Shown here piece by piece: positions 12,161 to 32,586 of a stretch of 41,697 bases of DNA. Below the pieces are notes generated by a model, which saw only the letters and a program-made list of their open reading frames with translations, was not told the origin of the DNA and searched no databases. The stretch comes from Actinomycetota bacterium (GTDB lineage: Bacteria; Actinomycetota; UBA4738): positions 1 to 41,697 of the forward strand of contig VAYJ01000060.1 of NCBI GenBank assembly GCA_005888465.1. The letters are read 5' to 3'. How positions within the stretch are numbered: position 1 is the first letter of the stretch; each line of letters starts with the position of its first letter. Position numbers and translations under genes: made by a program.

Positions 12161-12606
12161 CTCTCAGACCCCTTCGCGCTCGACTTCGCCCGCGACTTCG
12201 CCGTGGACTTTTTCTTGGGCGCGGTGACCACTTTCGCCGAGGAGGACTTCGTCGCGGCCTTCGCCGAGGGATGCGTCCGCTTCGCCTCGTCCTCGCTCAG
12301 AACCCGCATCGAGCGCATGGAGCCCTGTGCCTGGGAAAGCAGGCGCTGCCCGGCGGCGGCCGCCGAGAGGCCAGCCTTGACGGCCACCTCCGGTGCGCGG
12401 CGAACGACCTTCCGGGCGATGTCGGGGGCCTGCTCCGCCACCTTGCGCGCCATCGGCGGCCCGTGCTTGGTGACCGCCTCGGCCGCCTGCCGAGCCACCT
12501 TCGGTGCTCGCTCGGCGACCGACTTCGCGATGGGGACCGCCGTCTCGGCCACCTTCTTCGCCACCTTCGATGCCGTGTCGGCCATCTTGCCCATCTGATC
12601 GGGCAT
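12157..12606 (-). CDS. hypothetical protein with 11-residue amphipathic repeats and a Lys/Ser/Ala-rich basic tail
   Basis: ATG at 12604-12606 follows GGAGGAG. 149 aa. It is the 3' part of a 317-aa track ORF whose upstream part is Arg-rich shadow. Confidence 0.7.
   Translation of the reverse strand: MPDQMGKMADTASKVAKKVAETAVPIAKSVAERAPKVARQAAEAVTKHGPPMARKVAEQAPDIARKVVRRAPEVAVKAGLSAAAAGQRLLSQAQGSMRSMRVLSEDEAKRTHPSAKAATKSSSAKVVTAPKKKSTAKSRAKSSAKGSES
12373..12582 (-). repeat. coding tandem 11-mer repeats (consensus AExAPxVARKV, six units, one with a 4-aa insert)
   Basis: The units are ADTASKVAKKV / AETAVPIAKSV / AERAPKVARQA / AEAVTKHGPPMARKV / AEQAPDIARKV / VRRAPEVAVKA, read from the translation. 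Confidence 0.6.
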
Positions 12607-12708
12607 GGCTCCTCCTTCCGTCTCCCGCCTTGCCCACGAGTCTGGACCACGCGCGGGAGAGCGGCAACCTTCCGTCCGGGCCGGCTCGCGGCGTAGGCTT
12701 CGCCTGGC

Positions 12709-13380
12709 ATGAAGGCGGACCGGACGAAGGGGGAGGCGCCGCGAATCCGAGACATGCCGGCGCCCCGTCGCGCGCAGGGCGCGATCGGACCGCTCTTCCA
12801 GCGGGTGTTCGCGTGGCCGTATCGTCTCGCGCTGCACGCGCTCTACCGCGCCGGCGTGCGGCCGTGGCAGCTGACGTTGCTGTCCCTCGCGACGAACGTC
12901 CTCATCGGGGTGCTCCTGATCGCGGGCGATCGCTTCGTGCCCGGGATGCTCCTCATCGTCGCGGGGCTTCTGGACATCTTCGACGGTGGGGTCGCCCGTC
13001 TGCGCGGCGAGGCCGGACCCGCCGGCGCGTTTCTCGATTCGGTGCTCGATCGGGTGTCCGACGCGATCCTGTTCGGCGCGCTCTTCTGGTCCCTCCGGGC
13101 GCAGGGCCACGACCTGGCCGCCGGTCTCTCGCTCGCGAGCCTCGTCGTCTCGCTCCTAGTGAGCCAGGTCCGGGCCGAGGGCGAGGCGATGGGGCTCGCC
13201 CCGACGGAGGGGCTAGTCCAGCGGCTCGAGCGGTACGTGATCCTCATGGTGGCGCTCACCGCGCCCGGCGCGCTCACCCCGGCGCTTGCGGTGCTCGCCG
13301 GCCTCGGCACGGTGACGGTGATCCAGCGAACCGACGCCGTGCTTCGCCAACTCGGCCGCCGCGACCGCAAATCGGAGTGA
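12709..13380 (+). CDS. CDP-alcohol phosphatidyltransferase family protein
   Basis: The sequence DIFDGGVARLRGEAGPAGAFLDSVLDRVSD matches D-x2-DG-x2-AR-x8-G-x3-D-x3-D. It has multiple TM helices. The start could instead be the ATG 15 codons downstream. Confidence 0.85.
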   Translation: MKADRTKGEAPRIRDMPAPRRAQGAIGPLFQRVFAWPYRLALHALYRAGVRPWQLTLLSLATNVLIGVLLIAGDRFVPGMLLIVAGLLDIFDGGVARLRGEAGPAGAFLDSVLDRVSDAILFGALFWSLRAQGHDLAAGLSLASLVVSLLVSQVRAEGEAMGLAPTEGLVQRLERYVILMVALTAPGALTPALAVLAGLGTVTVIQRTDAVLRQLGRRDRKSE

Positions 13381-13435
13381 CAAAAGCAGCCCGGCGGATT
13401 TGACGCGCGGGGCCGCTGCGCAGTACAAACGCGCT

Positions 13436-13475
13436 GGAACTGCTGGGGCCTTCGGGCTCCGGCAGTTCCGTTTCT
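13436..13475 (+). terminator. 15-bp stem / UUCG-tetraloop hairpin followed by GTTTCT
   Basis: GGAACUGCUGGGGCC-UUCG-GGCUCCGGCAGUUCC forms 13 Watson-Crick and 2 G-U pairs on the + strand. These would be C-A mismatches on the - strand. It lies 56 nt after the 13380 stop and 58 nt before the 13527 start. Confidence 0.4.
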
Positions 13476-13526
13476 GGGGCCTTTCGGATTTGCCCCGCGG
13501 GCCGCACGTTCCCCATAATCTGCCGC

Positions 13527-15125
13527 ATGGTAGAGAGCATCCGCGAGGGTCTCCGCGGCAAGCGCATCCTCCTCACCGGCGTCACGGGCTTCCTGGGCAT
13601 GGCTCTGTTCGAGCGACTGCTCGCGGACGTGCCCGACACGGAGATCGTGGTCCTCGCCCGAGGGCGCTACGGCAGCCCGGCCGAGGACCGCATCCGCGAG
13701 CTCGTCACGCGTTCCGGGTTCAACACGCTCCGCGAGCGGATCGGCGACGAGGGGATCCGCGGAGCGCTGGCGGAGCGGGTGACGACCGTCGAAGGCGACG
13801 TGGCCGAGGACCTTCCCTCGTTCCCCGATGGCATCGACGTCGTGTTCCACTGCGCGGCGACGGTCTCGTTCGACTCCCCGGTCGACCTCGCGTTCGCGAT
13901 CAACGTGACCGGCGCCCGTCGCCTCTACGAGGCGGTGCTCGCCTCGGGGAGCCGCCCCCACCTGGTGCACGTCTCGACGGCGTACGTGGCCGGGCTCACG
14001 AAGGGCGTCGTGGCCGAGGAGCCACTCGGGCATCGGATCGACTGGCGCGTCGAGGCCGACGCGGCCGCCGCCGCGAAGCGGTCGGTCGAGGACGCCTCGC
14101 GCCGGCCCGAGATGCTGGATGCCTTCGTCGCGAAGGCGACGGCCCTGCACGGCCGCGCCGGCCCTCAGGAGGTGGCCGCCGACACCGAGGAGCGCCGCCG
14201 GGACTGGGTGGCACGCCGGCTCGTCCAGTACGGCCGGGCTCGCGCGCAGGCCCTGGGGTGGCCGGACGTCTACACGTTCTCCAAGGCGCTCGGCGAACGG
14301 GCGACGGAGGAGCTCGCCCAGGAGGCGGGCGTGCCGCTCTCGGTGGTTCGCCCCGCGATCGTGGAGAGCGCGCTCGAGCACCCCTACCCAGGGTGGATCG
14401 AGGGCTTCAAGATGGCCGAGCCCATCATCCTGGCGTACGGGCGCGGCGCGATCCCCGAGTTCCCGGCGATCCCCGAGGGGATCCTCGACATCATCCCAGT
14501 GGACCTGGTGGTGAACGCGATGCTCGCCGTCGCGGTCGCCGTGCCGCCCGTGGAGGCGCCCGGCTACTACCACGTGTGCTCGGGCTCGCGGAACCCGCTC
14601 ACCTTCCACAGGCTGTACGAGCTGGTCCGCGAGTACTTCCGGCAGCATCCGCTGCCCGAGCGGGGCCGCGGCGAGATCCGCGTCCCCGAGTGGGAGTTTC
14701 CCGGCCGTCGCCGGGTCGAGGCGAAGCTCCGCGCCGGCGAGCGGCTGCTCGATCGCGCCGACTGGGTCGTGCGGCGGCTGCCGCGCTCCGGTCGTGTGCG
14801 GGAGTTGGTCCGACGCCTGGATCGCGAGCGCGGGCGCGTGGACTTCATCCGTCGCTACGCCGACCTCTACGGCGCCTACACCGAGCTCGAGGTCATCTAC
14901 ACGGATGCCAGAGCGCTCGAGCTGCACCGGTCGCTCATCCCCGAAGATCGGCGCGACTTTCCGTTCGACGCTACTACCTGCAGGAGGTGCACTGCCCCAC
15001 GGTCACGCTCGCCATGCGCTTCCCCGCCCCCGCGCGGCCCGAACCGGAGGTTCGCGTCCGGCCGAGCAACAACGGCGCGCTGGCGGTGTTCGACATGGAG
15101 GGCACGCTCCTTGACTCGAACGTGA
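13527..15125 (+). CDS. fatty acyl-CoA/ACP reductase (SDR, NAD_binding_4 'male sterility' type); the last about 50 codons look off-frame
   Basis: Has ILLTGVTGFLG (Rossmann), STAYVAG and YTFSKALGE (YxxxK) motifs. The coding-like sequence stops at ...EDRRDFPFDA (about 14970) and is followed by Arg/Cys/Ser-rich text. Confidence 0.8.
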   Translation: MVESIREGLRGKRILLTGVTGFLGMALFERLLADVPDTEIVVLARGRYGSPAEDRIRELVTRSGFNTLRERIGDEGIRGALAERVTTVEGDVAEDLPSFPDGIDVVFHCAATVSFDSPVDLAFAINVTGARRLYEAVLASGSRPHLVHVSTAYVAGLTKGVVAEEPLGHRIDWRVEADAAAAAKRSVEDASRRPEMLDAFVAKATALHGRAGPQEVAADTEERRRDWVARRLVQYGRARAQALGWPDVYTFSKALGERATEELAQEAGVPLSVVRPAIVESALEHPYPGWIEGFKMAEPIILAYGRGAIPEFPAIPEGILDIIPVDLVVNAMLAVAVAVPPVEAPGYYHVCSGSRNPLTFHRLYELVREYFRQHPLPERGRGEIRVPEWEFPGRRRVEAKLRAGERLLDRADWVVRRLPRSGRVRELVRRLDRERGRVDFIRRYADLYGAYTELEVIYTDARALELHRSLIPEDRRDFPFDATTCRRCTAPRSRSPCASPPPRGPNRRFASGRATTARWRCSTWRARSLTRT

Positions 15126-15778
15126 TCGAGTCCTACCTCTGGCTCCGGCTGGCCGAGCTGCCGCCAGAGCGCTGGCCGGGCGAGGTGGCGGCGATCGCCC
15201 GCCGGCTGCCGCGCTACCTCTCAGCGGAGCGGCGCGACCGGGGCGAGTTCCTTCGTGCCTTCTACCGCCGGTACGCGGGCGCGTCCACCGAGGGCATCGA
15301 TCGCCTCATGGACGACCAGGTCGGGGAGCTCGTGCTGCAGCGCCTGTCACCGGCCGCGATCCGGCGCATCCGCGAGCATCGGACGGCGGGTCACCGGACC
15401 GTCCTCATCACCGGCGCGCTCGAGTGCTTCGTGCGCCCGCTCCGGCCGCTCTTCGACGAGGTGCTCGCGACGCGCCTAGGCGCGTCCGACGGCCGCCTCA
15501 GCGGTCGACTCTCCACCCCTCCGGTCGTGGGCGAGGCGCGGGCGAACTGGCTGCGACAGTACGCGGCCGGTCAGGGCGCCGACCTCAAAGCGTCATACGG
15601 CTACGCGGACAGCCACTCCGACCTGCCGATGCTCCGCGCGGTCGGCAACCCCGTCGCGGTGAACCCCGACGTGGCGCTCTACCGTGTCGCCCGCAAGCGC
15701 CGCTGGCCGATCGAGGACTGGCGAAGGACGAACGGCACCCCGCGGATCCTCATCCCGGAACCTGTGGTGAGCCGGTGA
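15014..15778 (+). CDS. HAD-IB family hydrolase (phosphoserine-phosphatase-like); the frame is open and coding-like from about 14969
   Basis: Has FDMEGTLL (motif I), VLITGAL (motif II) and YADSHSDLPML (motif IV). ATG at 15014 is the first Met. The same frame upstream reads RRYYLQEVHCPTVTLA. Confidence 0.8.
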   Translation: MRFPAPARPEPEVRVRPSNNGALAVFDMEGTLLDSNVIESYLWLRLAELPPERWPGEVAAIARRLPRYLSAERRDRGEFLRAFYRRYAGASTEGIDRLMDDQVGELVLQRLSPAAIRRIREHRTAGHRTVLITGALECFVRPLRPLFDEVLATRLGASDGRLSGRLSTPPVVGEARANWLRQYAAGQGADLKASYGYADSHSDLPMLRAVGNPVAVNPDVALYRVARKRRWPIEDWRRTNGTPRILIPEPVVSR

Positions 15779-16974
15779 TCGCGCTCGAGCTGTACCGATC
15801 GGCGACGCGCTACGCCGCGGCCCGGATCGTGGGGGACCGCGTGCCGGGCCTGGTGGCCGGGCCGCTCGCGCCGCTTCGGCTGGTGAACCGCGAGGAGCCG
15901 GCCGTCCCGGCAACAGGGTGGGCCCGCGTCCAGCCACGACTCTCGGGGATCTGCGGCTCGGACCTCGCGACGCTCTCCGGGCGAGCTTCGTTCTACTTCT
16001 CCCCGCTCGTGTCCATGCCGTTCGTCCCGGGGCACGAAGTGGTTGGCGACCTCTACGACGACCTCGAGGACCTCCCGGCGGGGACGCGCGTGGTGCTCGA
16101 GCCGGTGCTCTCGTGCGCGGCCCGCGGGCTGGAGCCGTGCCCGTCCTGCGCGAGCGGCCAGACCGGCCGGTGCGACCGTATCACGGTTGGGCACGTGGCC
16201 CCCGGGCTGCAGACGGGCTACTGCGCCGACACCGGCGGCGGGTGGGGACGGATGCTGGTCGCGCATCGGTCGCAGCTCGTGCCCGTGCCCGATTCGATGA
16301 CCGACACGCGCGCCGTCCTGGTGGAGCCCCTCGCGTGCGCGATCCACGCCGTGCGGCGCGCCCGCATCGAACCTGGTGCGTCCGTGCTCGTCGTGGGCGC
16401 GGGAACCGTCGGACTCCTCACGACGCTCGCGCTCCGCGAACACAGCGCGGCCGGCGAGGTGCTGGTGGTCGCCAAGCACGCTCGGCAGCGCGAGTGGGCC
16501 CGGCTCTTCGGCGCGAGCGACGTGGTGGCTGCTGGCGATGCCGTCACCGAGCTTCGGCGCGCCACCCATGCCTACAGGCTCCGCCCCGAGCGGGGCAGCG
16601 CGTATCTCCTGGGCGGGGTCGACACGAGCTTCGACTGCGTCGGCTCGCGGGCCTCACTCGACCTGGCGCTGCGAACGACCCAAGCCGGCGGGCGCGTGGT
16701 CCTGGCGGGGATGCCCGCCCCCGGCGCCGATCTGTCGCCGGTCTGGTTCCGGGAGCTGGAGCTCTTCGGCGCCTACACCGCCGGCGTGGAGCTCACCGAC
16801 GACGGGCCCGTCCCGACGTTCGATCTGGCGATCGACCTCGCCGCCGAAGCGCCCCTCGAGGGCATGGTGGGCGCCACCTATCCACTCGCCCGCTGGCGAG
16901 AGGCGCTCGACCACGCGTTCGGCGCGGGGCGGCTCGGCACGGTCAAGGTCGCGTTCGACCCGAGAGAGGACTAG
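15775..16974 (+). CDS. Zn-dependent alcohol dehydrogenase (MDR family, threonine/sorbitol-DH-like)
   Basis: Has GICGSDL, PGHEVVG, CPSCASGQTGRC (structural-Zn Cys cluster) and VVGAGTVGL motifs. GTG at 15775 overlaps the upstream TGA (GTGA). Confidence 0.85.
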   Translation: MIALELYRSATRYAAARIVGDRVPGLVAGPLAPLRLVNREEPAVPATGWARVQPRLSGICGSDLATLSGRASFYFSPLVSMPFVPGHEVVGDLYDDLEDLPAGTRVVLEPVLSCAARGLEPCPSCASGQTGRCDRITVGHVAPGLQTGYCADTGGGWGRMLVAHRSQLVPVPDSMTDTRAVLVEPLACAIHAVRRARIEPGASVLVVGAGTVGLLTTLALREHSAAGEVLVVAKHARQREWARLFGASDVVAAGDAVTELRRATHAYRLRPERGSAYLLGGVDTSFDCVGSRASLDLALRTTQAGGRVVLAGMPAPGADLSPVWFRELELFGAYTAGVELTDDGPVPTFDLAIDLAAEAPLEGMVGATYPLARWREALDHAFGAGRLGTVKVAFDPRED

Positions 16975-16987
16975 AGGAGAGGATCCC

Positions 16988-18571
16988 ATGGGCAGACCCG
17001 GCTTCGTCCTGGAGGTCGACGAACGCACCCCGCCGCTCCTCGTCCACGCCGGCGAAGGGTTCGGCGTCCAGCGCTTCCCGCTCGGCACCAAGGTGATCTA
17101 CCCGCCCGACTCGCTGCCCGGCATCCGCGACGTGAATGCCGCCATCCAGGACGCGCTGCTGCATCCCATCGCCTCCGACCCGCTCCCGGAGCTGCTGCAC
17201 CCCGGGATGCGCCTGACGATCGCGTTCGACGACATCTCGCTGCCGCTCCCGCCCATGCAGACGCCCGACATCCGCGGGCGCGTGATCGAACACGTCCTGG
17301 AGCTCGCGGCCCGCGCCGGCGTCGACGACGTCCGGCTGATCGTGGCGAACTCGCTCCACCGGCGCATGACGCCCGCCGAGATCAAGCGGGCCGTCGGCGA
17401 GCGCGTCTTTCGGTCGTTCTATCCCGACGCGCTCACCAATCACGACGCCGAGGACTCCGCGAACCTCATCCACCTTGGCGTGACGGAGCAGGGCGAGGAC
17501 GTCGAGATCAACCGTCGGGCGGCCGAATCGGACCTCCTCGTCTACGCGAACATCAACCTCGTGGCGATGGACGGCGGCCACAAGTCGGTGCCGGTCGGCC
17601 TCGGCTCCTATCGGAGCCTCCGGCACCACCACAACGTGCACACGATGCTCAACTCGCGCTCGTACATGGACCCGCGCGAAGGGCACTCGGCCATCCACGA
17701 CTCGTGCACCCGCATGGGGCGGCTCCTGTCCGGGCACCTGCGGATCTTCACGATCGAGACCACGCTCAACAACGACACCTTCCCGTCGCCGTTCGAGTTC
17801 ATGAATAAGCGCGAGTGGGAGTGGTCGTTCAAGGACCAGGCGAGCTACCTCGCGGCGAAGCGGGCCAACGAGCGCGCGCCGGGGCGCATGCGGCGGGAGG
17901 TCTTCCGCCGCGTCGCGGCGCCGTACGGCGTGACCGGCGTTACGGCGGGCGACACCGAGACCGTGCACCAGCGCACGCTGGCGACCCTGCACCGGCAGCA
18001 GCTGACCGAGGTCAACGGGCAGTCGGACATCCTGGTCGTCGGGCTGCCCTACATCTGCCCGTACAACGTGAACTCGATCATGAACCCGATCCTGGTGCAG
18101 TGCCTGGGGCTCGGCTACCTGTTCAACATGTACGTGAACAAGCCGGTCGTGCGGCCGGGCGGCGTGATGATCCTGCACCATCCGGTGCCGTGGGAGTTCC
18201 ACCAGGTGCACCACCCGTCGTACATCGACTTCTTCGACGAGGTGCTCGCCGAGACGACCGACCCTGCCGCGATCGAGGCGAAGTACGAGGCGCAGTACGC
18301 GCAGGATCCCTGGTACGTGCACCTGTACCGCAACTCCTACGCGTACCACGGCGTGCATCCGTTCTACATGTGGTACTGGGGCGCGCACGCGATGGAGTAC
18401 CTGCGCGACGTGATCTTCGTGGGCGCCGATCGCAAGGCCGTCGGCCGGATGGGCTTTCGCACCGCCTCGACGTTCGCGGACGCCCTCGAGATGGCGAGCG
18501 AGACCGTCGGGCGGAGCCCCTCGGTCACGTACCTGCACACGCCGCCGCTCACGCTCGCGGAGGTGCGCTGA
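16988..18571 (+). CDS. LarA-family (DUF2088 / lactate-racemase-like) nickel-pincer-cofactor enzyme, 527 aa
   Basis: IVANSLHRRMTPAEI aligns with L. plantarum LarA VATGFHRPSTHEEL. MDGGHKSVPVGLGSY aligns with FSGGRKSVLPGIASY, and a His triplet lies at +14 to +16 from the Lys. ATG is preceded by GGAGAGGA. Confidence 0.85.
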   Translation: MGRPGFVLEVDERTPPLLVHAGEGFGVQRFPLGTKVIYPPDSLPGIRDVNAAIQDALLHPIASDPLPELLHPGMRLTIAFDDISLPLPPMQTPDIRGRVIEHVLELAARAGVDDVRLIVANSLHRRMTPAEIKRAVGERVFRSFYPDALTNHDAEDSANLIHLGVTEQGEDVEINRRAAESDLLVYANINLVAMDGGHKSVPVGLGSYRSLRHHHNVHTMLNSRSYMDPREGHSAIHDSCTRMGRLLSGHLRIFTIETTLNNDTFPSPFEFMNKREWEWSFKDQASYLAAKRANERAPGRMRREVFRRVAAPYGVTGVTAGDTETVHQRTLATLHRQQLTEVNGQSDILVVGLPYICPYNVNSIMNPILVQCLGLGYLFNMYVNKPVVRPGGVMILHHPVPWEFHQVHHPSYIDFFDEVLAETTDPAAIEAKYEAQYAQDPWYVHLYRNSYAYHGVHPFYMWYWGAHAMEYLRDVIFVGADRKAVGRMGFRTASTFADALEMASETVGRSPSVTYLHTPPLTLAEVR

Positions 18572-19488
18572 TGCGCGGGCGCTCGCTCGCGGACGACGTG
18601 CGCGAGGTCGCGCGCGGGTGGCGGTGGACCCGCCGGCCGCTCACGCCGCGTTCGGCCGAAGCGTGGGCTCCGCGCCCGGAGCCACGGGAGTTCCCGACCG
18701 ACTGGGCCCGGACGCGGGTCGCCAAGGCCACCCGCGAGGCGGTGCTCAGCTACGGGTTCCGCCCCGTGATCCACGTGGAGACCGAGATGGCGGTCGACGG
18801 CCTGGACCACCTCGACGGCGTGCGCACGCCCGTGATGTTCGTCGCGAACCACGCGAGCCACATGGACACCCCGCTCATCCTCTGCGCGCTCCCCAAGGCC
18901 TGGCGCGAGCGCACGGCCGTGGCCGCGGCGGCCGACTACTTCTTCGACGTCTGGTGGCGCGCCGCGTCGACCGCCCTCGCGTTCAACACGTTCCCCATCG
19001 AACGCACCGGGGGCGCCCGCGCCACGGACACCGCCAGGCGTCTGGTCGGCGAGGGGTGGAGCCTGGTCGTCTACCCGGAGGGGACGCGCTCGCGCGACGG
19101 GTGGGTGGGCCGCTTCCGGCACGGTGCCGCGCGCCTGGCGCTGGAGTTCGGCATCCCGGTGGTGCCGATCGCGCTGCGGGGGACCTTCGCGGCGATGCCT
19201 CGCGGCCGATCGTGGCCGGTGAAGGGCCGCCTGCCGGTCTCAGTTCGGTTCGGGCCGGCCCTGCAGGCGGAGCCCGGCGAGGACTTCCGGTCGTTCTCCC
19301 GGCGGATCCAGCAGGCGATGGGCCGGCTGTGGGACGAGGACGCGACCGACTGGTTCCGATCGCTCCGGCACCAGGCCGAGGGGACCACCCCGAGCCTGGC
19401 TGGTCCACCCGCCCCGCGATGGCGACGCATGTGGGAGTCGAGCCGCCCGCTGCCGCGTCGCGGCCCCGAGCGCGTCTGGCCGCGATGA
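18571..19488 (+). CDS. lysophospholipid (PlsC-type, HX4D) acyltransferase
   Basis: Has NHASHMD (HX4D), FPIER, YPEGTRS and VPIALRG motifs. Its ATG shares one nt with the upstream TGA (TGATG). Confidence 0.85.
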   Translation: MRGRSLADDVREVARGWRWTRRPLTPRSAEAWAPRPEPREFPTDWARTRVAKATREAVLSYGFRPVIHVETEMAVDGLDHLDGVRTPVMFVANHASHMDTPLILCALPKAWRERTAVAAAADYFFDVWWRAASTALAFNTFPIERTGGARATDTARRLVGEGWSLVVYPEGTRSRDGWVGRFRHGAARLALEFGIPVVPIALRGTFAAMPRGRSWPVKGRLPVSVRFGPALQAEPGEDFRSFSRRIQQAMGRLWDEDATDWFRSLRHQAEGTTPSLAGPPAPRWRRMWESSRPLPRRGPERVWPR

Positions 19489-20150
19489 CCGAGCCCGCCG
19501 CCCGCAGGACCCGTATGCCGGGCGAGGCGCGCCGGCGGCGGCTCCTCGAGGAGGCGATCCGGCTCTTCGGCAAGCGCGGGTTCGAGGGGACGAGCCTCGA
19601 GGCGGTCGCGACGTCGGCCGGCGTGCGCAAGCAGACCCTCCTGTACTACTTCCCGACGAAGGACGCGCTGCTCGAGGCGTGCGTCCAGGAGACCAGCCGA
19701 CGGGTCGCCGAGACGCTCACCGCCGCGCTCGAGGAGGAGACGTCCAGTTCGCACAAGGCCGAGGCCGTCATCCACACGCTGTTCCGGGTAGCCGAGGAGT
19801 GGCCGGACTTCCCGCAGTTCATCCGCGAGGCGAGCAGGCTGGGGCCCGAGGTGATCGAACGCTTCGCGGGGGTGCTCGAACCCCTCCGGCGCCGGGCGCT
19901 GCTGTTCCTGCAGCAGGGGATGTCGGAGGGCGCGATCCGCTCGCAGGACCCCGCCCTCCTGCTGTTCACGCTCTACACCGCGGTCGTTGGCTCCATCACC
20001 GAGGCCGGCGTGCTGCGCGCGGTGGTCGGCGAGGACCAGAGCCGGACGGCGCTTCACCGTCGCGAGCAGGAGCTGCTGCGGTTCGTTCGCAACGCGCTGG
20101 CACCTGGGGAGGGTGGAACGGCCGGGACCGGCGCGTCGACGGGCGCCTGA
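19485..20150 (+). CDS. TetR/AcrR-family transcriptional regulator
   Basis: The N-terminal HTH region reads RRRLLEEAIRLFGKRGFEGTSLEAVATSAGVRKQTLLYYFPTKDALL. ATGA overlap with the upstream gene. Confidence 0.9.
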   Translation: MTEPAARRTRMPGEARRRRLLEEAIRLFGKRGFEGTSLEAVATSAGVRKQTLLYYFPTKDALLEACVQETSRRVAETLTAALEEETSSSHKAEAVIHTLFRVAEEWPDFPQFIREASRLGPEVIERFAGVLEPLRRRALLFLQQGMSEGAIRSQDPALLLFTLYTAVVGSITEAGVLRAVVGEDQSRTALHRREQELLRFVRNALAPGEGGTAGTGASTGA

Positions 20151-20242
20151 GCTCATGTGTTGCCGTCGGCGTGGTCCGGGGGTCCGGCATACCGTCCCAA
20201 AAATCTTCAATGGGATATATTGCGACTTGTAGATCATTTTCG

Positions 20243-21607
20243 TCAGGGAGCTGCAGGAGAGCCGGTCACTGTCGCGAACAGACGGAGATACTCCTGCGCC
20301 GAGACCGCCCACGAAAAGTCCTTCGCCATCCCGGCCCGCTGCATCCGCCGCCACGTGACCTGGTCGCCGCGGTAGCGCTCGACCGCGCGCCGGATCGCAT
20401 CCGCCAGCCCTGCAGGCGCGTCGACGTCGAACTTGAACCCGGTGCGGCCCTCCTCGATCGTGTCGTCGAGCCCGCCCACCGCGCTCACCACGGGCAGCGT
20501 GCCGTACCGCATGGCGTACATCTGGTTCAGCCCACATGGCTCCCATCGCGACGGCATGAGCAGCATGTCCGAGCCGCCCTGGATGAGGTGCGCGAGAGAA
20601 TCGACGAAACCGATCCGCACGCCCACCCGGCCCGCATGGCGGGCAGCCAGCCGGGTGAGCCGGCGCTCCAGGGCCGGGTCGCCGTTGCCGAGGATCGCGA
20701 GCTGCACGCCCAGCTCCACGAGGTCCGGCGCGAGTTCGATCACGAGGTCCACGCCCTTCTGCCGGTCGAGGCGGGTCACCATGCCGAGCAGCGGCGCGTC
20801 GCGCCGGACCTCGAGGCCGAGCTCACGCTGCAGCGCGGCCTTCGCAAGCCGCTTTGGCGACAGACGCCTGGCCGTGTACGGCTGGGGGAGATTGGGATCC
20901 ACCTCGGGTGACCAGTCGGTGTAGTCCGCGCCGTTCAGGATGCCGTGCAGCTCGCCCGCCGCCGCTCGTTCGCGAAGCACCCCCTCGAGGCCGAACCCGA
21001 ACGCCGGAGCCTGGATCTCGCGTGCGTACCTCGGTGACACGGTCGTGACCGCGTCGGCGAAAACGAGGCCCGCCTTCATGTACGAGACGTTCCCGTGGAA
21101 CTCGAGCCCTCGGAACGTGAACGCGGAAGCCGGGAGCCCGACGCGCGTGAGTGTGGCCGGCGGGAACACGCCCTGATACGCGAGGTTGTGCACCGTGTAC
21201 ACGACGCTCGACCCGGGGAGCGCTCCCTCGGATCGCACTAGGAACGCCGCGAGGGCCGCCTGCCAGTCGTGCAGGTGCACGACGTCGGGGGCGAGACCCT
21301 GCGCGGCCGCAGCGTCGAGCGACGCGCGGGCGAAGTACGCGAAGCGGCGGTCGTTGTCGGGATAGTCGACACCGTCCTCGCCGTAGAGACCGGCGCGGTC
21401 GAAGTACCCCTCATGCTCGACGAAGTGGAACCGCCGGCCGGGGACCGAGGGCGTTCGTTCGGGCTGCACGCCCCGATACCGCGGCGTGCTCACCAGGACC
21501 TCGTGGCCAAGGACGGCGAACGCCCCGGAGAGCGCGCTCGCGACGTCGGCGAGCCCTCCGGTCTTCGAGAACGGGCGGCATTCCGAGGCGACGAACAGGA
21601 TCCTCAT
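20243..21607 (-). CDS. glgA: glycogen synthase (GT5, GlgA)
   Basis: Has MRILFVASECRPFSKTGGLADV (KTGGL), HDWQAAL, TVSPRYA, and SRWEPCGLNQMYAMRYGTLPV. ATG at 21605-21607. The track ORF is over-extended by 67 codons. Confidence 0.9.
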   Translation of the reverse strand: MRILFVASECRPFSKTGGLADVASALSGAFAVLGHEVLVSTPRYRGVQPERTPSVPGRRFHFVEHEGYFDRAGLYGEDGVDYPDNDRRFAYFARASLDAAAAQGLAPDVVHLHDWQAALAAFLVRSEGALPGSSVVYTVHNLAYQGVFPPATLTRVGLPASAFTFRGLEFHGNVSYMKAGLVFADAVTTVSPRYAREIQAPAFGFGLEGVLRERAAAGELHGILNGADYTDWSPEVDPNLPQPYTARRLSPKRLAKAALQRELGLEVRRDAPLLGMVTRLDRQKGVDLVIELAPDLVELGVQLAILGNGDPALERRLTRLAARHAGRVGVRIGFVDSLAHLIQGGSDMLLMPSRWEPCGLNQMYAMRYGTLPVVSAVGGLDDTIEEGRTGFKFDVDAPAGLADAIRRAVERYRGDQVTWRRMQRAGMAKDFSWAVSAQEYLRLFATVTGSPAAP

Positions 21608-21678
21608 GACGGCCCACGATAGCGGCCGGAATCTCGCAACGTATCCTTGCGCGGCTCGCAACCGCCGGAGGAGGAGCG

Positions 21679-23787
21679 ATGCAGCGCGGCGAACCTCGTG
21701 AGGACGAACGAGCGCTGGCGGCGCTCGCGCGGCTGCACGGGATCCAACGCTCCTACGTCGATACGCACGACCGCCGGATCCGAGCGAGCCGCGAGGCGAT
21801 CCTGGCAACGCTCGGGGCCCTCGGCGCCCCCGTGGCCGGCATTCGCGACGTGCCGGGCGCGATCCGCGAGCGTCACCGCTGGAGCTGGGAGCGTCCTCTC
21901 GAGCCCGTGATGGTCGCGTGGGACGGGCGGCTGGACGAGCTGACGCTCCGTGTTCCGCTGCGCGGAGTCGGGGGCACGGTCGCGTGTCGCATCGAGCTCG
22001 AGGGCGGCGGGCTGCCGTTCACCTGGCGCGGCCGCGGCGAGGAGATCGGCGGGGCCGAGCTCGATGGACGCCGGTTCGTGCAGCTTCGGCTCCGGGCGGA
22101 CCTCGGCCTGCCCCTCGGCTACCACGCGCTGACCGTGCGCGCGGGCACGACCGAGGCGGATGCGCTCGTGATCGCCGCGCCGAAGGCGGCGCCGGCGACC
22201 GGGCCTGGGCGCGCGTGGGGACTGTCGCTCCCGCTGCACGCGCTGCGGTCGCGGCGTTCGTTCGGCGTGGGAGACCTGACCGATCTCGCCCGCCTCACCG
22301 AGTGGGTGGCCGGCCTCGGCGGTCGCGCCGTCGGCCCGCTCCCGCTCCACGCGGCGCTAGGCGGGCCGCTCTTCGAGCCAAGCCCCTACTCCCCCGCGAG
22401 CCGGCTCTGCTGGAACGAGGCCTATCTCGATCTCGAACGCCTGCCCGAGCTCGCCGCGTCGGAGGAGGCGCGGCGCGTCCTCTCGTCGAACGCGACGCGC
22501 CTGGCCGCGCGGCGGCTGCTGCATGCGCCGCTCGTCGACCTTCGCGCCGCCGCGGAGTTGAAGCTTCGCGTCCTCGAAGCCGTCACTCGGGACTTCCTCG
22601 CGCAGCCTGGGGGCTCGCCGCGTCGACGAGCGCATCGAGCGTTCCTCCGCGCGAACCCCACGGTCGCCGACTACGCGGTGTTCCGCGCGGCCTGCGATCG
22701 ACGGGCGACGCCGTGGTGGGAATGGGACGAGCCCGAGCGGTCCGGCCGGCTTTCCCGGCGGCGGGACATAGGCGCGGACGTGCACGCGTACGCGCAGTGG
22801 GCGCTCGCCGAGCAGCTCGAGGACGTCGCGGCCGGCGCGCGCGCCAGCGGCGCGACGCTCTACCTCGACGTCCCCCTCGGCGTGAACGCCGCCGGCTACG
22901 ACGTCTGGCGCGAACCCGGGCTGTTCGCGTTGCGGGCGACGGTCGGCGCGCCGCCGGACGACTTCTTCGCGAAGGGCCAGGACTGGGGATTCCCGCCGAT
23001 GCGCTCCGACGCGGTCCGCGAGCGACGCTACCGGTACCCGATCGCCTGCCTTCGCACGGTCCTTCGCCACGCGAGCCTCGTGCGCCTGGATCACGTGATG
23101 GGTCTGCACCGCCTGTTCTGGGTCCCGAAGGGCTTCGCCGCCACCGACGGCGTCTACGTGCGTGGCCGGCCGGAGGAGGGCTACGCGATCCTCACCCTCG
23201 AGGCCGCGCGCTCCGGTGCGACGATCGTCGGCGAGGACCTCGGGACCGTCCCACGGTCGCTTCGGCCATCCATGGCCCGGCACGGGATCCGCCGGTCCTG
23301 GGTCCTGCCGCTCGAGCTCACCGGGAAAGGCCTCAAGCAACCGACGGCACGATCGGTCGCGAGCCTAAACACCCACGACCTCTTCCCGTTCGCCGGGTTC
23401 TGGCGCGGGATGGACCTGGACCTCTGGCGGGAGCGCGGATGGCTCGATGGCGCGGGCGAGCGGGCGGCGCGCGCGACACGTCGAACGAAGGAGCGAGCGC
23501 TCACGGCGCTCCTTCGACGGCAGGGCTGGCTCGGGCCCGGGGACCCGAGCGAGTCCGACGTCCTCGACGCGCTGCTCCGATTCCTCGCCGCGAGCGACGC
23601 CGGGCTGCTCATGGTCGGCCTCGACGACCTCCTCGGTGAGACCCGGCCGCAGAACGTGCCGGGCACGACCGGCGGCGCGAACTGGCGGCGGCCGGCTCGT
23701 GAGTCCTTCGAGCGCTTCCGCGCGCTCCCCGAGGTGACGAGTACGCTACGAGCGGTCGATGCGCTCCGCTCGACCCAACCCCGATGA
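21679..23787 (+). CDS. malQ: 4-alpha-glucanotransferase (GH77, long actinobacterial type)
   Basis: Has [24 protein letters not shown] and GEDLGTVP motifs. 702 aa. GGAGGAGGAG lies before the ATG. Confidence 0.9.
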
Positions 23788-25700: not shown

Positions 25701-27803
25701 CCGGCGTGCGCCCGTGGCCGGGTCGGCCCTATCCCCAGGGGGCGACGTGGGACGGCGCTGGCGTGAACTTCGCGATCTTCTCCGAGCACGCGACGGGCGT
25801 GGACCTCTGTCTCTTCCACGGGCCGAGCGACGCCGTCGCCGCGGAAACGATCCCGCTCCGCGAGCGCACCGATCTCATCTGGCACGCGTACCTGCCCGAC
25901 GCCCGGCCCGGGCAGCTCTACGGCTTCCGCGTCCACGGCCCCTACGAGCCGGAGCAGGGTCACCGGTTCAACCCCGGGAAGCTCCTCCTCGACCCGTACG
26001 CGAAGGCGATCAGCGGCACCATCGAGCCAACGGACGAGACCTTCGGCTACCCGATCGGCGGCCCGGAGGAAGACCTCGTGCCCGACCCACGAGACAGCGC
26101 TGGCGCGATGCCGAAGTCGGTCGTCGTCGACGACGCGTTCACGTGGGGCGACGACCGTCCGCCGCGCGTGCCCTGGAACCAGACCCTCATCTACGAATGC
26201 CATGTGCGCGGGATGACGATGCTTCGGCCCGGCGTCCCCGACCGTATCCGCGGCACGTTCCTGGGCATCGTCCACGACCCGATCCTCGAGCACTTGCGCT
26301 CGCTCGGCGTCACGGCCGTGGAGCTCCTGCCGATCCACCAGTTCGTCTCCGAACGCGCCCTGGCCGATCGAGGCCTGACGAACTACTGGGGCTACAACTC
26401 CGTTGCCTTCTTCGCCCCCCACGCCCGCTACGCGACCGGAGCGCTCGGCCAGCAGGTCGACGAGTTCAAGTCGATGGTGAAGGGCCTGCACGCGGCCGGC
26501 ATCGAGGTGATCCTGGACGTCGTCTACAACCACACGGGCGAGGGCAACCACCTCGGCCCCACGCTCTGCCTTCGTGGGATCGACAACGACGCCTTCTATC
26601 GCCTGCAGCCCGACGCGCGGCGCTTCTACATGGACTTCACGGGGACCGGCAACAGCCTCAACATGCTTCATCCCCGCACCATCCAGCTGATCATGGACAG
26701 CCTCCGCTACTGGATCCGGGAGATGCACGTCGACGGGTTCCGGTTCGACCTCGCGCCCGTGCTCGCCCTGTACGAGGTGAACCGCCTGGGAACCTTCTTC
26801 GACATCATCCAACAGGATCCCGTGCTGTCCCAGGTGAAGCTCATCGCCGAGCCATGGGACCTCGGCGAGGGCGGGTACCAGGTCGGGAACTTCCCCGTCG
26901 GCTGGGCCGAGTGGAACGGCAAATACCGCGACTGTGTCCGCCGCTTCTGGCGCGGCGACCCCGGCCAGGTCCCCGAGCTCGCATCGCGGCTCGCAGGATC
27001 GAGCGACCTGTACCAGGCATCGGGACGACAGACGTATGCGGCCGTCAACTTCGTCACGGCGCACGACGGCTTCACGCTGCACGATCTGGTGAGCTACGAA
27101 CGCAAGCACAACGAGGCGAACGGCGACGACAATCGCGACGGGACCGACGCGAACGACAGCCGCAACTGGGGAGCGGAAGGCCCGACCGACGCGCCCCGCA
27201 TCCGCCAGACCAGAGAGCGGATGAAGCGGAACTTCCTGGCCACGCTCCTGCTCTCACAGGGCGTCCCGATGATCTCCGCGGGCGACGAGATGGGCCGCAC
27301 GCAGCGGGGCAACAACAACGCGTACTGCCATGTCGAAGGAAGACCGGGCCCTCCTCGAGTTCACCCGGGCCGCTATGGAGATCGTCCGGTGGAACCCGAT
27401 CCTCCGGCGGCGTGCTTTCTTCGCCGGCCGCCCCGCAAACACCGGCGGTGCCAAGGACCTGACGTGGATCCGCTGGGACGGCCACGAGATCGAGCAGGAC
27501 GATTGGCAGAACCCCGACCTCCGTGCGCTCGGCATGCTGATCGACGGCCTCGCAACCGACGAGGTGGACGAGCGCGGCAATCCCATCGAGGGCGACACGC
27601 TGCTGCTCATTCTCAACGGCGGCCACCGCTCGATGCGCTTCGCGCTCCCAAGCATGGGCCGACAAGGCACGTGGACCGAGATCCTCAACACGGCGCGTCC
27701 GGGCCCACCGCGCGCATCCCGCGCGCCGTCGGTGCGGCTGATGTCGAACTCGCTGATCTTGCTCCGCCACGGCGAGGAGCCGAACGAGCCGCTCGGCAGC
27801 TAG
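25697..27803 (+). pseudogene. glgX: glycogen debranching enzyme GlgX, split over two frames
   Basis: Frame 1 (from ATG 25697, ATGA overlap with glgB) reads through GH13 motifs to ...GNNNAYC and then becomes Arg/Pro-rich. Frame 2 (27330-27803) continues with [32 protein letters not shown] and the C-terminal domain. Confidence 0.85.
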
Positions 27804-28609
27804 CGCGTCGGGTTCAGGCTTCCCTGGCGATACCCGGCGGGATCGACCGACACCTCGTCCCAGCCGAGGGACCGTAGTTTGGCCAGAAGCTGCTCGAGCG
27901 CCTCATATTCGCGCAAGCGATCCAGATCCTCGACTGGAACCTCGATCGTGGCAGAGGGGCCGCGATGACGCACGCGGACCGAGTCGAACCCGAGCTGTCG
28001 GATGGCCTGCTCCGCGCGGTCGACGCGCGACAGCAGCGACGGCATGATGCGCAGGCCGAAGGCAACGCGGGAGGAGAGGCAGGCGAGCGCCGGCTTGTCT
28101 GCGACGGAGAGTCCGAGGGCGCTCGCGATCGCGCGAACATCGACCTTGCCGACGTTCTCCTCGAGGAGCGGGTTGCGCACCCCGTGCTGCGTCGCCGCGC
28201 GCAGGCCCGGGCGCACGTCGGCGAGGTCGTCGGCGTTCGCGCCGGCGAGCACCGCGACGCCGGGGCCGGCAGTGGCGGCGAGACGACTGAGCGTCGCGTA
28301 TAGCTCGGTCTTGCAGTGGAAGCAGCGCAGCTCGTCGTTGCGCGCGTACGCCTCGCGCTCCACCTCGTGGGTCTCGATCACGCGGTGGGTGACTCCGATC
28401 TCGGCCGCGAGCGAACGCGCGGTTTCGAGCTCGCCGGCCGGGTAGCTCGGTGAAACGGCCGTGACGGCGGTGACGTTGGCGTGGCCCCGAGCTCGGGCAC
28501 TGACGGCCGTGACCACGGCGGAATCGACGCCGCCGGAAAGGGCCACCAGCACGGCCGTCGAACCGTAGGAGCTGACGCGGGCCTCGAGTCGCTCGAGCAG
28601 TTCGTTCAT
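27800..28609 (-). CDS. larE: LarE, ATP-dependent sulfur transferase of NPN biosynthesis (PP-loop ATP pyrophosphatase)
   Basis: Has an SGGVDS PP-loop, [10 protein letters not shown] (equivalent to the LarE sulfur-donor Cys) and an additional CFHC pair. ATGA overlap with larC. Confidence 0.9.
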
Positions 28610-29779
28610 CGGTCGGCCGGCTCGAACCGGAGGGCGCGGGCGGCGGCCGCCGCTTCCTCGTAGACGTCGCGAACAGACCGGCCCGAGCGCTCCGCGAGCC
28701 CGGCGACGTCGTCGTGCTCGGGCGTCGCGCTCATGACGCGGTCGCCGAGGAGCCCGACCTTCACGCGAACCGCGCCGTCGGCGAGCGTCACGGTTGCCAC
28801 CCGACGGGCCAGCTCCGCGCGCCGAACAGGCCGGATCCGAACGCCGAACGTCGTCGTGGCCTCAAAGAAGACGGTGAGCACACGGGATTCCGCGGCCGGC
28901 TCGCAGAGGGCAGACAGCAGGACTCCGAGGCGGCCCTTCTTCATCACGATCGGCATGGTCCAGGCGTCGAGCGCGCCGGCGCCGAACACCGCCTGCACGG
29001 CATCTGCGACGAGCTCCGGCGTCAGGTCGTCGATGTTGGCCTCGAGCAGAACGAGGTCGCGCTCGAGCAAGCCGGTCGCGGCGCGCGCGGCCGGCTTCGA
29101 TCCGATGAGCACGCGAACGACGTTCGGGACGCCTGCGGGGTCGCGGCTGCCCGGCGCCGTAGCCGATGGATTCGAGCTCGAAGTCGGGAAGCTCGGCCGG
29201 CTCGCCGAGCGCCGACAGGATGGCGGCGGCTGTCGGCGTCACGGTCTCGCCGGAGACCTCGGCCGAACGGACGCGGAAGCCCCGGAGCAGCTCGAGCATC
29301 GCGGGGCCGGGCTCGCCGAGCGGGATGCTCGAAACCGCCATGCGCCCGATGCTCAGCAGGTCCAGGGCAGCGGCGACCCCGACGACGTCGAGGATCGTGT
29401 CCGGGTCGCCGAGCTCGTGGAGATGGACCTCCTCGATCGGCACGCCATGGACTCGGGCCTCGGCCTCTCCCAGACGCTCGAGCACGGCTCGCGCGCGGGC
29501 TCGGATGGGTTCGGGGAGCCCGGCTCCGTCGAGCATGTCGAGCATTCGGGGAAGGCGTGGCGTCCGCCACGGTTCGGAGCTCGCTTCAATGTGCAGCGCC
29601 CGCGAGCGGATGCCGGCGCGCGTGACCTCGACGGTCCGGACGCGGAACCGAGTTGGGATCACGCGCTCGACGAGCTCGAAGATCTGTTGCTCGGGCGCGC
29701 CGGCGTCGATGAGGGCCGCGAGCAGCATGTCTCCGGCGGCGCCGCCGAGGACGTCGACGTAGAGGGTTCGTTCGCTCAT
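28606..29779 (-). CDS. larC: LarC, nickel-inserting cyclometallase (DUF111 family), encoded in two overlapping frames
   Basis: The N-terminal frame reads MSERTLYVDVLGGAAGDMLLAALIDAG...SIGYGAG. The other frame reads GSRDPAGVPNVVRVLIGS...LLEANIDDLTPE...ATPEHDD. The frame changes at about 29146-29152. TGATG overlap with larB. Confidence 0.85.
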
Positions 29780-30600
29780 CACGGGACCCGCCGCGCGATG
29801 AGCGCGGCCGCGTACCCCGCGCCCACCCCGTCGTCGATGTCGACGCACACCGTGCCCGGCGTGCAGGACGAGAGCATCGCGAGGAGCGCCGCAAGGCCGC
29901 CGAAGCTCGCGCCGTACCCCACGCTGGTGGGACAGGCGATCACGGGGCATGTCGCCATCCCGCCGACGACGCTCGCGAGCGCACCTTCCATCCCCGCGAT
30001 CACGACGATCGCATCGGCGCTGGCAAGCCGCTCCCGCGCCGCGGCCAGGCGGTGCAGGCCCGCGACGCCGACGTCGGCCACGATCTCAGCGCCGGCGCCG
30101 AGCAACGTCGCGGTGAGCTCGGCCTCTTCGGCCACGGGCAGGTCCGCGGTTCCCGCGGTGAGGACGAGCACTTCGCCGACGGGCGCCGGGATGTTTCGCG
30201 CGAGCGCGATCGCACCGGCGGCAGGCCGTTCGACGACGGGGATGCCGTGCGCCGCGCCGAGCCTGCGGACCGCGGATGACTGCTCGGGCGCCGCCCGGCT
30301 CACAAGCACCGGCCCGTCGTTCCCCGAGAGCAACCGCTCGACGATCGCCACCACCTGCTCGGTGGTCTTGCCCTGCGCGAACACGATCTCGCACGCGCCC
30401 TGGCGAAGCTCGCGGTGGTGGTCCACCTTCGCGAAGCCGAGGTCGGTGAACGGCAGGTCGCGGAGCGCCCGACGGGCCTCCTCCGGGCTCGTCGCGCCGG
30501 ATGCGACCGATTCCAACAGCTCGCCCAGCCGTCGCTCGTAGGGCGTCTCGGACGGCCCAGGTTCCTGCTCGGGATGGAGCCGAGCCACCTCTCCGGACAT
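29779..30600 (-). CDS. larB: LarB, NaAD carboxylase/hydrolase of NPN biosynthesis (PurE-like)
   Basis: The sequence DLGFAKVDHHRELRQG...VLVLTAGTADLPVAEEA...VIAGMEGALASVVGG...VIACPTSVGYG is typical of LarB / AIR-carboxylase-fold proteins. Confidence 0.9.
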   Translation of the reverse strand: MSGEVARLHPEQEPGPSETPYERRLGELLESVASGATSPEEARRALRDLPFTDLGFAKVDHHRELRQGACEIVFAQGKTTEQVVAIVERLLSGNDGPVLVSRAAPEQSSAVRRLGAAHGIPVVERPAAGAIALARNIPAPVGEVLVLTAGTADLPVAEEAELTATLLGAGAEIVADVGVAGLHRLAAARERLASADAIVVIAGMEGALASVVGGMATCPVIACPTSVGYGASFGGLAALLAMLSSCTPGTVCVDIDDGVGAGYAAALIARRVP

Positions 30601-31637: not shown

Positions 31638-31700
31638 CCCCCGAATCTACCAACCCGCGCCGGGCGACCCGTTGACATCGTGCCCGATACTGAGCGGACC

Positions 31701-32585: not shown

Positions 32586-32586
32586 C

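Follow-up and report, generated by a model that had tools for sequence, protein, structure and literature searches.

The elb operon of Myxococcus xanthus comprises elbA to elbE (MXAN_1531 to MXAN_1527; Lorenzen et al. 2014, as reviewed in PMC9131029). In that review, elbD mutants, and probably elbE mutants as well, are reported to lose alkyl and vinyl ether lipids, the homologue of alkyl-dihydroxyacetone-phosphate (alkyl-DHAP) synthase (AGPS), MXAN_1676, is reported to contribute little to the ether lipids of M. xanthus, and ElbC is described as a protein of "unknown function". The same text gives an elbD-dependent i15:0 aldehyde and no fatty alcohol in M. xanthus, as well as the normal sn-1-alkyl-sn-glycero-3-phospho configuration for the elb products. 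AGPS-independent formation of the ether bond in elb has been a question since 2014. Separately, the lactate racemase (LarA) homologues (LarAHs) of groups 14 and 15 have stood as orphan enzymes; group 15 is entirely myxobacterial and includes MXAN_1529 (Desguin 2020, Table S3). Because the elb operon runs from MXAN_1531 (elbA) to MXAN_1527 (elbE), MXAN_1529 is elbC, and the two questions concern one protein family. Here, we analyzed contig VAYJ01000060.1 (assembly GCA_005888465.1) of an Actinomycetota bacterium of the UBA4738 lineage, a stretch of 41,697 nucleotides with a G+C content of 71% that we call the window. It carries a cluster encoding a fatty acyl-CoA reductase (FAR) fused to a HAD phosphatase, a Zn-dependent alcohol dehydrogenase (ADH), a LarAH and a PlsC-type acyltransferase. 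Judged from homology and gene content, this cluster is an actinobacterial, unbundled version of the elb gene cluster, and we put the probability that it encodes an elb-type ether-lipid pathway at about 0.6.

Gene cluster and its relationship to elb

Positions 12709-20150 form an unbroken same-strand coding run in the third-position GC frame plot, with the pattern typical of real genes. A preliminary description, made from the letters of the sequence, had read this run as an operon of seven separate genes. The same-strand run stood, and all four junctions that had been quoted were located: the GTGA overlap at 15775-15778, the TAG stop at 16972-16974 followed by the 13-nt AGGAGAGGATCCC and the ATG at 16988, the TGATG at 18569-18573 and the ATGA overlap at 19485-19488. 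Profile searches upheld every family assignment. The seven-gene operon did not stand; FAR and HAD are one gene, and the CDP-alcohol transferase is a separate, non-conserved unit. The genes of the run are as follows.

12709..13380 (+): CDP-alcohol phosphatidyltransferase, closest to phosphatidylinositol phosphate (PIP) synthase; a neighbour outside the conserved core
13527..15778 (+): FAR-HAD fusion gene, frameshifted here (profiles and relatives)
15775..16974 (+): Zn-dependent dehydrogenase of the medium-chain dehydrogenase/reductase (MDR) family, polyol or secondary-alcohol type (ADH_N and ADH_zinc_N)
16988..18571 (+): LarA homologue of group 14, ElbC orthologue, candidate enzyme with nickel-pincer nucleotide (NPN) as its cofactor (NF052592, blastp)
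18571..19488 (+): PlsC/AGPAT-type acyltransferase (PF01553)
19485..20150 (+): TetR-family regulator, coupled to PlsC via the ATGA overlap (TetR_N)

We compared the products with the Elb proteins using blastp. The LarAH matched ElbC (MXAN_1529) over its full length with 48.5% identity (E 2.5e-180), and ElbC scored 848.8 bits on NF052592, the same model that the LarAH of the window matches. The HAD domain matched all of ElbB (34%, E 2e-35), the FAR domain matched residues 8-539 of ElbD (29%, E 5e-44), and PlsC matched residues 1229-1440 of ElbD, its C-terminal acyltransferase (33%, E 6e-25). The Zn-ADH gave no blastp match to ElbA or ElbE, which are both short-chain dehydrogenases/reductases (SDRs). 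Thus, elb homologues exist for four of the five core functions, and the elb-type assignment follows from these matches of LarAH, HAD, FAR and PlsC to ElbC, ElbB and the two ends of ElbD. At the M. xanthus locus (L082), the order is SDR, HAD, Lar_N, a protein with NAD_binding_4-Sterile-AMP-binding-PP-binding-Acyltransferase domains, and SDR; three further Myxococcota loci showed the same gene order.

The neighbourhood had been taken for undescribed, and no LarA-family enzyme was thought to be tied to lipid metabolism. Both statements require correction. In Table S1 of Desguin 2020, the neighbours given for group 14 already include the clusters of orthologous groups (COGs) of PlsC, HAD-IB, Zn-ADH and thioester reductase, that is, the LarAH-PlsC-HAD-reductase neighbourhood seen here, and those given for group 15 include two SDRs, HAD-IB and a long-chain acyl-CoA synthetase; group 15 is the group whose member MXAN_1529 belongs to a genetically studied ether-lipid operon.

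We then scanned one genome per GTDB species. At least 600 species matched, and the best 80 loci were analyzed together with the window by tblastn and all-against-all clustering of neighbouring genes, so that counts are given out of 81 loci. These best 80 are almost all from Actinomycetota and include Actinomadura, Micromonospora, Streptomyces, Frankia, Pseudonocardiales, Jiangellaceae and Acidimicrobiales. The LarAH was present in all 81, FAR-HAD and ADH in 77, PlsC in 77, TetR in 24, LarC in 24, LarB in 23 and LarE in 18. The core of FAR-HAD, Zn-ADH, LarAH and PlsC was found in fixed order and on one strand in 77 of the 81 loci, across many actinobacterial orders. The arrangement is far beyond chance, and the gene order, whose conservation the preliminary description had named as a point to check, is conserved. 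In nearly every locus, the LarAH was the best conserved protein of the cluster; in L011, for example, it was 72% identical as compared with 49-55% for the others. Beyond the core, TetR, LarB, LarC and LarE, no other neighbour family occurred in more than 9 of the 81 loci. We had considered a transporter, an acyl-CoA synthetase, a glycosyltransferase or a desaturase as neighbours that might hint at the substrate, and none exceeded that number.

The nearest solved structures of the Zn-ADH are ketose reductase and the sorbitol, butanediol and xylitol dehydrogenases. PlsC scored 84 bits on PF01553, reads HASHMD at its HX4D motif and carries YPEGTR. Two Streptomyces loci (L061 and L073) read larE-larB-larC-(FAR)-HAD-LarAH-PlsC and lack a Zn-ADH where it usually lies, so that some lineages either do without the ADH or obtain it from elsewhere. 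In nine Pseudonocardiales-type loci, a 292-aa protein with the diiron-type E-x-x-H motifs EEFWHGE and QETRH lies beside larE and the cluster (in L048 at 2762-3640 (+)). Its only Pfam match, to FA_desaturase_2, is weak (16.5 bits, below cutoff), and the protein may perhaps desaturate the product of the pathway. A 2.7-kb contig binned as Candidatus Velamenicoccus archaeovorus (L055) carries a LarAH (70% identical), PlsC and TetR of actinobacterial type. Mis-binning is the most likely explanation, with the contig being actinobacterial and no evidence for the cluster in Omnitrophota.

The LarA homologue and its cofactor genes

The product of 16988-18571 belongs to the LarA superfamily by sequence and by predicted fold, as had been proposed. 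It scored 901.3 bits on NF052592 (LarAH14/15/16; cutoff 740) over model positions 1-520 of 520, and 139 bits on Lar_N (DUF2088, PF09861). An AlphaFold2 model (pLDDT 81) was compared with the PDB; 19 LarA-family chains were matched at E <= 1e-12, the best being 9q3k with a TM-score of 0.74/0.81. Residues D82, H124, K199 and H215 align to D72, H108, K184 and H200 of lactate racemase, of which K184 tethers the cofactor and H200 ligates the nickel. All four were invariant in 20 sequences from two phyla, covering the actinobacterial and ElbC clades, and the same cofactor and catalytic residues are given for group 14 in Table S3 of Desguin 2020.

The second catalytic histidine of lactate racemase (H174) is missing. 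At its position, N190 aligns with the Asn of single-histidine enzymes; the alignment of Desguin 2020 has a gap there for groups 14 and 15, and the literature describes both groups as lacking the second catalytic His. Groups 14 and 15 likewise do not conserve R75, Q295 and K298, which bind the carboxylate of the substrate. The R75 position is L85 in the window protein and Leu, Ile or Val across the family, and group 14 is listed with I, a gap and N at the three positions (Desguin 2020, Table S3). Because the second catalytic His and the carboxylate binders are missing, a function as 2-hydroxy-acid racemase appears unlikely, and the substrate of the LarAH is probably not a hydroxy acid. Consistent with this, purified Frankia LarAH14 was inactive on seven 2-hydroxy acids, and Desguin et al. 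2020 suggested that such LarA homologues may catalyse another hydride-mediated reaction. The racemisation or epimerisation of 2-hydroxy acids, which the preliminary description had put forward, therefore finds no counterpart in these residues.

These residues also bear on an alternative in which the LarAH is a true racemase or epimerase of 2-hydroxy (fatty) acids or their acyl-CoA esters, and the cluster makes a hydroxy-acid or 1,2-diol phospholipid to which the CDP-alcohol transferase adds the head group and from which HAD removes a phosphate. All characterised members of the LarA superfamily invert C2 of 2-hydroxy acids, the NCBIfam name of the family is "hydroxyacid isomerase", and a FAR acting on 2-hydroxyacyl-CoA would, on chemical grounds, yield a 1,2-diol; long-chain 2-hydroxy acids were also not part of the substrate panel used for Frankia LarAH14. 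However, H174 is absent or Asn, and the conserved carboxylate site is gone in both groups. The transferase is absent from 78 of the 81 loci, HAD is fused to the reductase regardless of whether a transferase is present, and the homologous elb operon yields glycerol ether lipids and not diol lipids (PMC9131029). We consider this alternative very improbable.

Genes for biosynthesis of the NPN cofactor lie 7.6 kb downstream of the cluster in the window.

27800..28609 (-): larE, sulfur-insertion enzyme of NPN biosynthesis (TIGR00268)
28606..29779 (-): larC, nickel insertase, in two frames (LarC1 and LarC2)
29779..30600 (-): larB, nicotinic acid adenine dinucleotide (NaAD) carboxylase/hydrolase of NPN biosynthesis (NF033503); start uncertain

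LarE scored 273.5 bits on TIGR00268 (cutoff 150) and carries an SGGVDS PP-loop. LarB scored 236 bits on NF033503 (cutoff 175), with candidate starts at 30516, 30588 or 30600. On the joined translation, LarC scored 140 bits on LarC1 (cutoff 90) and 133 bits on LarC2 (cutoff 50). A surplus base at 29149, between ..IGYGAG and SRDPAGV.., puts its N-terminal and C-terminal parts into separate frames, and larC is a single open reading frame (ORF) in relatives such as L017 and L030. In Lactobacillus plantarum, larC requires a programmed frameshift. As other genes of the window are also broken, an error or lesion seems more likely here than a programmed shift. The LarE of the window has three cysteines (CFHC plus a later ACL cysteine), and we presume that it resembles the [4Fe-4S]-type LarE of Thermotoga and not the sacrificial single-Cys type.

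Co-occurrence with larBCE had been suggested as a point to check, and it was seen in the window and in 25 other loci, in which larBCE adjoins the cluster within 1-6 kb. TetR excepted, larBCE are the most frequent neighbours after the core. In Actinomycetota, then, the LarAH/ElbC family adjoins the genes for nickel-pincer cofactor biosynthesis, and this linkage provides the strongest indirect evidence that the LarAH would use that cofactor. In the group 16 paralogues of Table S3 of Desguin 2020 (Frankia alni FRAAL3757, Microlunatus and P. propionicum), which share the PlsC and HAD surroundings, G, A or M stands in place of the tether Lys, and the catalytic His is gone from some as well; these relatives are probably either NPN-independent or without catalytic function.

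Frameshifts, transcription units and neighbouring genes

The FAR-HAD gene of the window is not intact. Its parts scored 168.7 bits (NAD_binding_4), 126 bits (HAD, PF12710) and 108.8 bits (HAD-IB, TIGR01490, above cutoff). The FAR part matched the fatty acyl-CoA reductase PDB 7eoz at E 2e-53 and retains the motifs GVTGFLG and YTFSK, and HAD motif I reads FDMEGTL, where relatives carry D-x-[D/E]-G-T. In L081, a metagenomic contig 92% identical to the window, a single 756-aa gene comprises NAD_binding_4, Sterile and HAD, and FAR and HAD are one uninterrupted ORF in 65 of the 68 relatives that could be assessed. Because of this single ORF in L081 and the other relatives, the native unit is, on comparative grounds, a fused FAR-HAD gene, of which the window holds a frameshifted copy. 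Alignment to L081 showed that 19 nt are missing at about 14968-14972. The deletion takes out ..AAAIRW.. and shifts the frame, leaving an out-of-frame tail of ~50 aa that stops at 15125; the HAD frame reads from 14969, and the signal of third-position GC changes frame near 14980.

Three genes in the 41.7 kb are frameshifted. FAR-HAD and larC belong to the pathway, and the third is a glgX-like debranching-enzyme gene at 25718-27767 (+), in which ~10 codons are absent at ~27330 (..AYC|QDNE..) and the frame changes from +2 to +3. These three lesions could mean that the pathway is decaying in this genome and that the window holds a relic, a set of pseudogenes and not a working operon. By contrast, the remaining genes of the cluster are intact with strong coding signal and have relatives 80-98% identical, the 92%-identical L081 keeps the fusion gene intact, and HAD could restart at GTG 14987 or ATG 15014. 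The frameshift in the unrelated glgX is consistent with assembly or consensus errors. We regard decay as a possible state of this copy, although we would not expect it.

The region upstream of FAR-HAD contains three further elements.

13435..13470 (+): hairpin with a 16-bp stem and TTCG loop, then GTTTCT; probable terminator of the upstream gene
13490..13519 (+): promoter-like TTGCCC-18-CATAAT, sigma-70-like match
13519..13534 (+): candidate TetR operator TCTGCCGCATGGTAGA, a palindrome across the start codon (pattern search)

The CDP-alcohol transferase scored 43.9 bits on PF01066 (CDP-OH_P_transf), and 112 and 113 bits on NF045883 (PIP synthase) and NF040950, both below cutoff. It adjoins the cluster only in L001 and L081, the two closest relatives. 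The 153-nt spacer downstream of it folds at -77.8 kcal/mol (z = -3.06), and the hairpin within it has a perfect stem. L081 and L001 both retain this hairpin, and the copy in L001 shows compensatory changes. We considered whether it could be a known riboswitch or RNA family and rejected this, as Rfam gave nothing at E <= 1; the hairpin probably serves to terminate transcription of the transferase gene. The promoter-like site is the sole sigma-70-like match in 12400-20400 as compared with 0.2 expected, and its CATAAT is invariant in the window, L081 and L001. Because it ends 7 nt upstream of the ATG at 13527, it suggests that the FAR-HAD mRNA is leaderless or nearly so. By these sequence signals, the transferase is a separate unit, set off by the hairpin and by the cluster's own promoter-like site. 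The idea that HAD removes a phosphate left by the transferase step did not hold up; HAD is fused to the reductase and kept in clusters without the transferase.

The last gene of the run scored 58 bits on TetR_N. Of the 21 loci with an adjacent TetR gene, 20 carry the palindrome TCTACCG-NN-CGGTAGA in the 150 nt upstream of the FAR start, as do 2 of the 43 loci without. It is often double, with one copy over the -35 region and one over the -10/+1 region. The window has two matches versus 0.12 expected, and the copy TCTGCCGCATGGTAGA at 13519-13534 overlaps the -10 box and spans the ATG, which suggests that the FAR-HAD transcript begins inside the operator and is leaderless. That TetR would act as the local regulator, as first proposed, thus agrees with a promoter palindrome that tracks its presence. 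The hairpin was also considered as the TetR operator and dropped, since it is this palindrome that tracks TetR across loci.

Glycogen and alpha-glucan genes occupy 20243-27877 beside the cluster (GT5 glycogen synthase-like, MalQ, GlgB-like and GlgX-like), and elb of M. xanthus is flanked (L082 2181-7420 and 18517-19746) by two alpha-amylase-family genes and a GlgC-like gene. The glucan genes at both clusters may be a coincidence or may mark a storage-metabolism neighbourhood. A WS/DGAT gene at 949-2340 (-) is not a conserved neighbour of the cluster; its product might consume fatty alcohols or alkylacylglycerol. At 31647-34937 (-), a long ORF with DAO and GCV_T domains resembles sarcosine or dimethylglycine oxidase and overlaps a choline/ethanolamine-kinase-like gene with good coding statistics at 31701-32585 (+). 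The last Pfam match of this ORF stops at residue 765 of 1096, so that its listed length probably overruns the true stop by ~270 codons, perhaps via a further frameshift.

Candidate pathway and comparison with known systems

We infer both the ether-lipid product and the step catalysed by the LarAH from homology and residue conservation. The most likely product is a 1-O-alkyl glycerolipid made via a route without AGPS; among the alcohol, diol, ether and hydroxy-acid products listed in the preliminary description, the ether is the option that homology favours. In the proposed scheme, the FAR domain would convert a long-chain acyl-CoA to a fatty aldehyde or alcohol. The LarAH would hold NPN through Lys199; His215 would ligate the nickel, Asp82 would contact the ribose, and His124 would be the sole acid/base. 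The enzyme would abstract a hydride from the carbinol at sn-2 of an acceptor of the glycerol-phosphate type. Two routes to 1-alkyl-DHAP can be drawn from this point. The first is a borrowed-hydrogen reductive etherification of the hemiacetal formed by the aldehyde and glycerol phosphate; the second is an AGPS-like exchange of acyl for alkyl at C1 on transiently oxidised acyl-glycerol 3-phosphate. The sorbitol-dehydrogenase-like Zn-ADH would then reduce the 2-keto group, as the SDR ElbE would in myxobacteria, PlsC would acylate at sn-2, and the HAD-IB domain would take the phosphate off to give alkylacylglycerol for neutral or polar ether lipids.

The LarAH/ElbC protein is assigned to the ether-forming step because it is the only component of the cluster left without an assigned step. 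An extra ketoreductase-type enzyme is kept in both clusters, from unrelated families (SDR vs MDR), and the ether scheme accounts for the presence of only one catalytic base, for the loss of the carboxylate site and for this non-orthologous replacement of the ketoreductase. That LarAH/ElbC itself forms the ether bond is a tentative assignment, which we hold to be less probable than the ether-lipid pathway as a whole and would not expect to be right on present evidence. The same doubt applies to the specific version in which ElbC/LarAH14 is the missing ether-bond enzyme and performs a nickel-pincer borrowing-hydrogen reaction on the sn-2 alcohol of glycerol 3-phosphate (G3P) or a lyso-lipid; in this version, the hydride would be returned to the hemiacetal or oxocarbenium from the FAR-made fatty aldehyde, giving 1-alkyl-DHAP. 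Stereoinversion of G3P to glycerol 1-phosphate (G1P) by the LarAH was set aside, as it needs two bases on opposite faces; it is also disfavoured by the normal sn-1-alkyl configuration of the elb products given in PMC9131029.

Several points weigh against an elb-type ether-lipid pathway. To our knowledge, no LarA enzyme offers a precedent for the etherification proposed here. The FAR-HAD and larC genes are frameshifted here, so that this copy may be inactive or the assembly faulty. Neither the window proteins nor the conserved neighbours contain an AMP-binding or PP-binding domain, that is, the acyl-CoA synthetase (ACS) domain and acyl carrier protein (ACP) of ElbD, and the extra reductase is a Zn-MDR with no SDR of the ElbE type, whereas elb has ElbA and ElbE. 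In all four Myxococcota loci, larBCE was missing from the 10 kb around the cluster, and use of NPN by ElbC has no support from linkage there. Our literature searches gave no report of ether lipids in these Actinomycetota. Finally, in PMC9131029, the assignment of elb rests on elbD and elbE mutants and not on ElbC, and the elbB phenotype is attributed to polarity.

The missing reports of ether lipids in these taxa are also compatible with a cluster that makes ordinary ester glycerolipids or neutral lipids, of the fatty-alcohol or wax type or in lysolipid turnover, while the LarAH provides the backbone from a small soluble polyol phosphate, for example through oxidation or interconversion of G3P, DHAP or sugar phosphates, and no ether bond is formed. 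Pairings of HAD-IB and PlsC are common among actinobacterial lipid genes, the nearest solved relatives of the LarAH are tied to carbohydrate metabolism by genomic context, the ADH resembles polyol dehydrogenases, and the window contains the WS/DGAT gene. On the other hand, that gene is not a conserved neighbour, and backbone supply alone would hardly explain why the reductase-phosphatase fusion is always coupled to the LarAH. The identity between LarAH and ElbC is at the orthologue level, three further parts are homologous to elb, and the output of elb is genetically defined as ether lipid. We therefore consider an ester-lipid cluster unlikely, though clearly less so than a hydroxy-acid racemase, and prefer the elb-type ether-lipid pathway.

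In the literature that we searched, the LarA papers are silent on lipids and the elb papers are silent on LarA and nickel, and joint searches of the searchable literature found no paper connecting the nickel-pincer cofactor with elb. What is new here is the link between a published LarA neighbourhood and a known elb operon, together with a testable mechanistic implication, namely that one step of ether-lipid synthesis in bacteria may depend on nickel and have gone unrecognised. If true, this would add a nickel requirement to bacterial membrane-lipid synthesis, extend nickel-pincer chemistry beyond racemisation, and provide the first nickel-dependent step of lipid biosynthesis and the first non-isomerase enzyme of the LarA family. 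The cluster would also be a genetic marker for non-isoprenoid alkyl glycerol ethers in the at least 600 GTDB species representatives found by the scan, and such a marker would bear on the reading of ether-lipid biomarkers in soils and sediments.

Among the described systems, lactate racemase LarA shares with the window protein Lar_N, the two-domain fold, D72, K184 and H200, the catalytic H108 and, putatively, the dependence on LarB, LarC and LarE. It differs in having H174, R75, Q295 and K298. The window protein is ~100 residues longer, and its C-terminal domain has invariant His/Tyr/Trp-rich motifs of its own. LarA_Sp and LarA_Bw (9q2u, 9q3k and 9q3j; group 17 of Desguin), which do not racemise lactate, are closer (Gatreddi et al. 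2025, PMC12611868). They gave the best sequence match (E 3e-31, over both domains) and the best fold match as well, the single-histidine octamers 9q3k and 9q3j at the TM-scores given above. Shared features are the NPN tether Lys, the nickel-ligand His, the ribose Asp, the one catalytic His and the Asn at the His174 position. However, identity to the window protein is only about 20-22%, these enzymes keep a Lys at the R75 position where the window family has Leu, Ile or Val, and their genomic context is carbohydrate metabolism and not lipid genes.

The canonical ether-lipid pathway consists of FAR1, GNPAT, AGPS, alkyl-DHAP reductase and AGPAT (in animals; MXAN_1676-1674 in M. xanthus). Its FAR, PlsC/GNPAT-type acyltransferase, ketoreductase and phosphatase each have one candidate in the window. 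It differs in its FAD-dependent alkyl-DHAP synthase, which is missing from the cluster and the conserved neighbours, and the window cluster has a nickel-pincer LarA homologue in the unassigned position. In elb, FAR and the acyltransferase are fused with an ACS domain and an ACP in the 1470-aa ElbD, whereas the window cluster fuses FAR to HAD instead and has a standalone acyltransferase. TetR and its operator, found in only some actinobacterial lineages of the cluster, are a further difference from elb, and larBCE is linked to the cluster in many Actinomycetota as opposed to none of the four Myxococcota loci. Both elb and the window cluster contain a LarA homologue, a HAD-IB phosphatase, a FAR domain, an AGPAT-type acyltransferase domain and one extra NAD(P)-type reductase, encoded by genes tightly packed on one strand.

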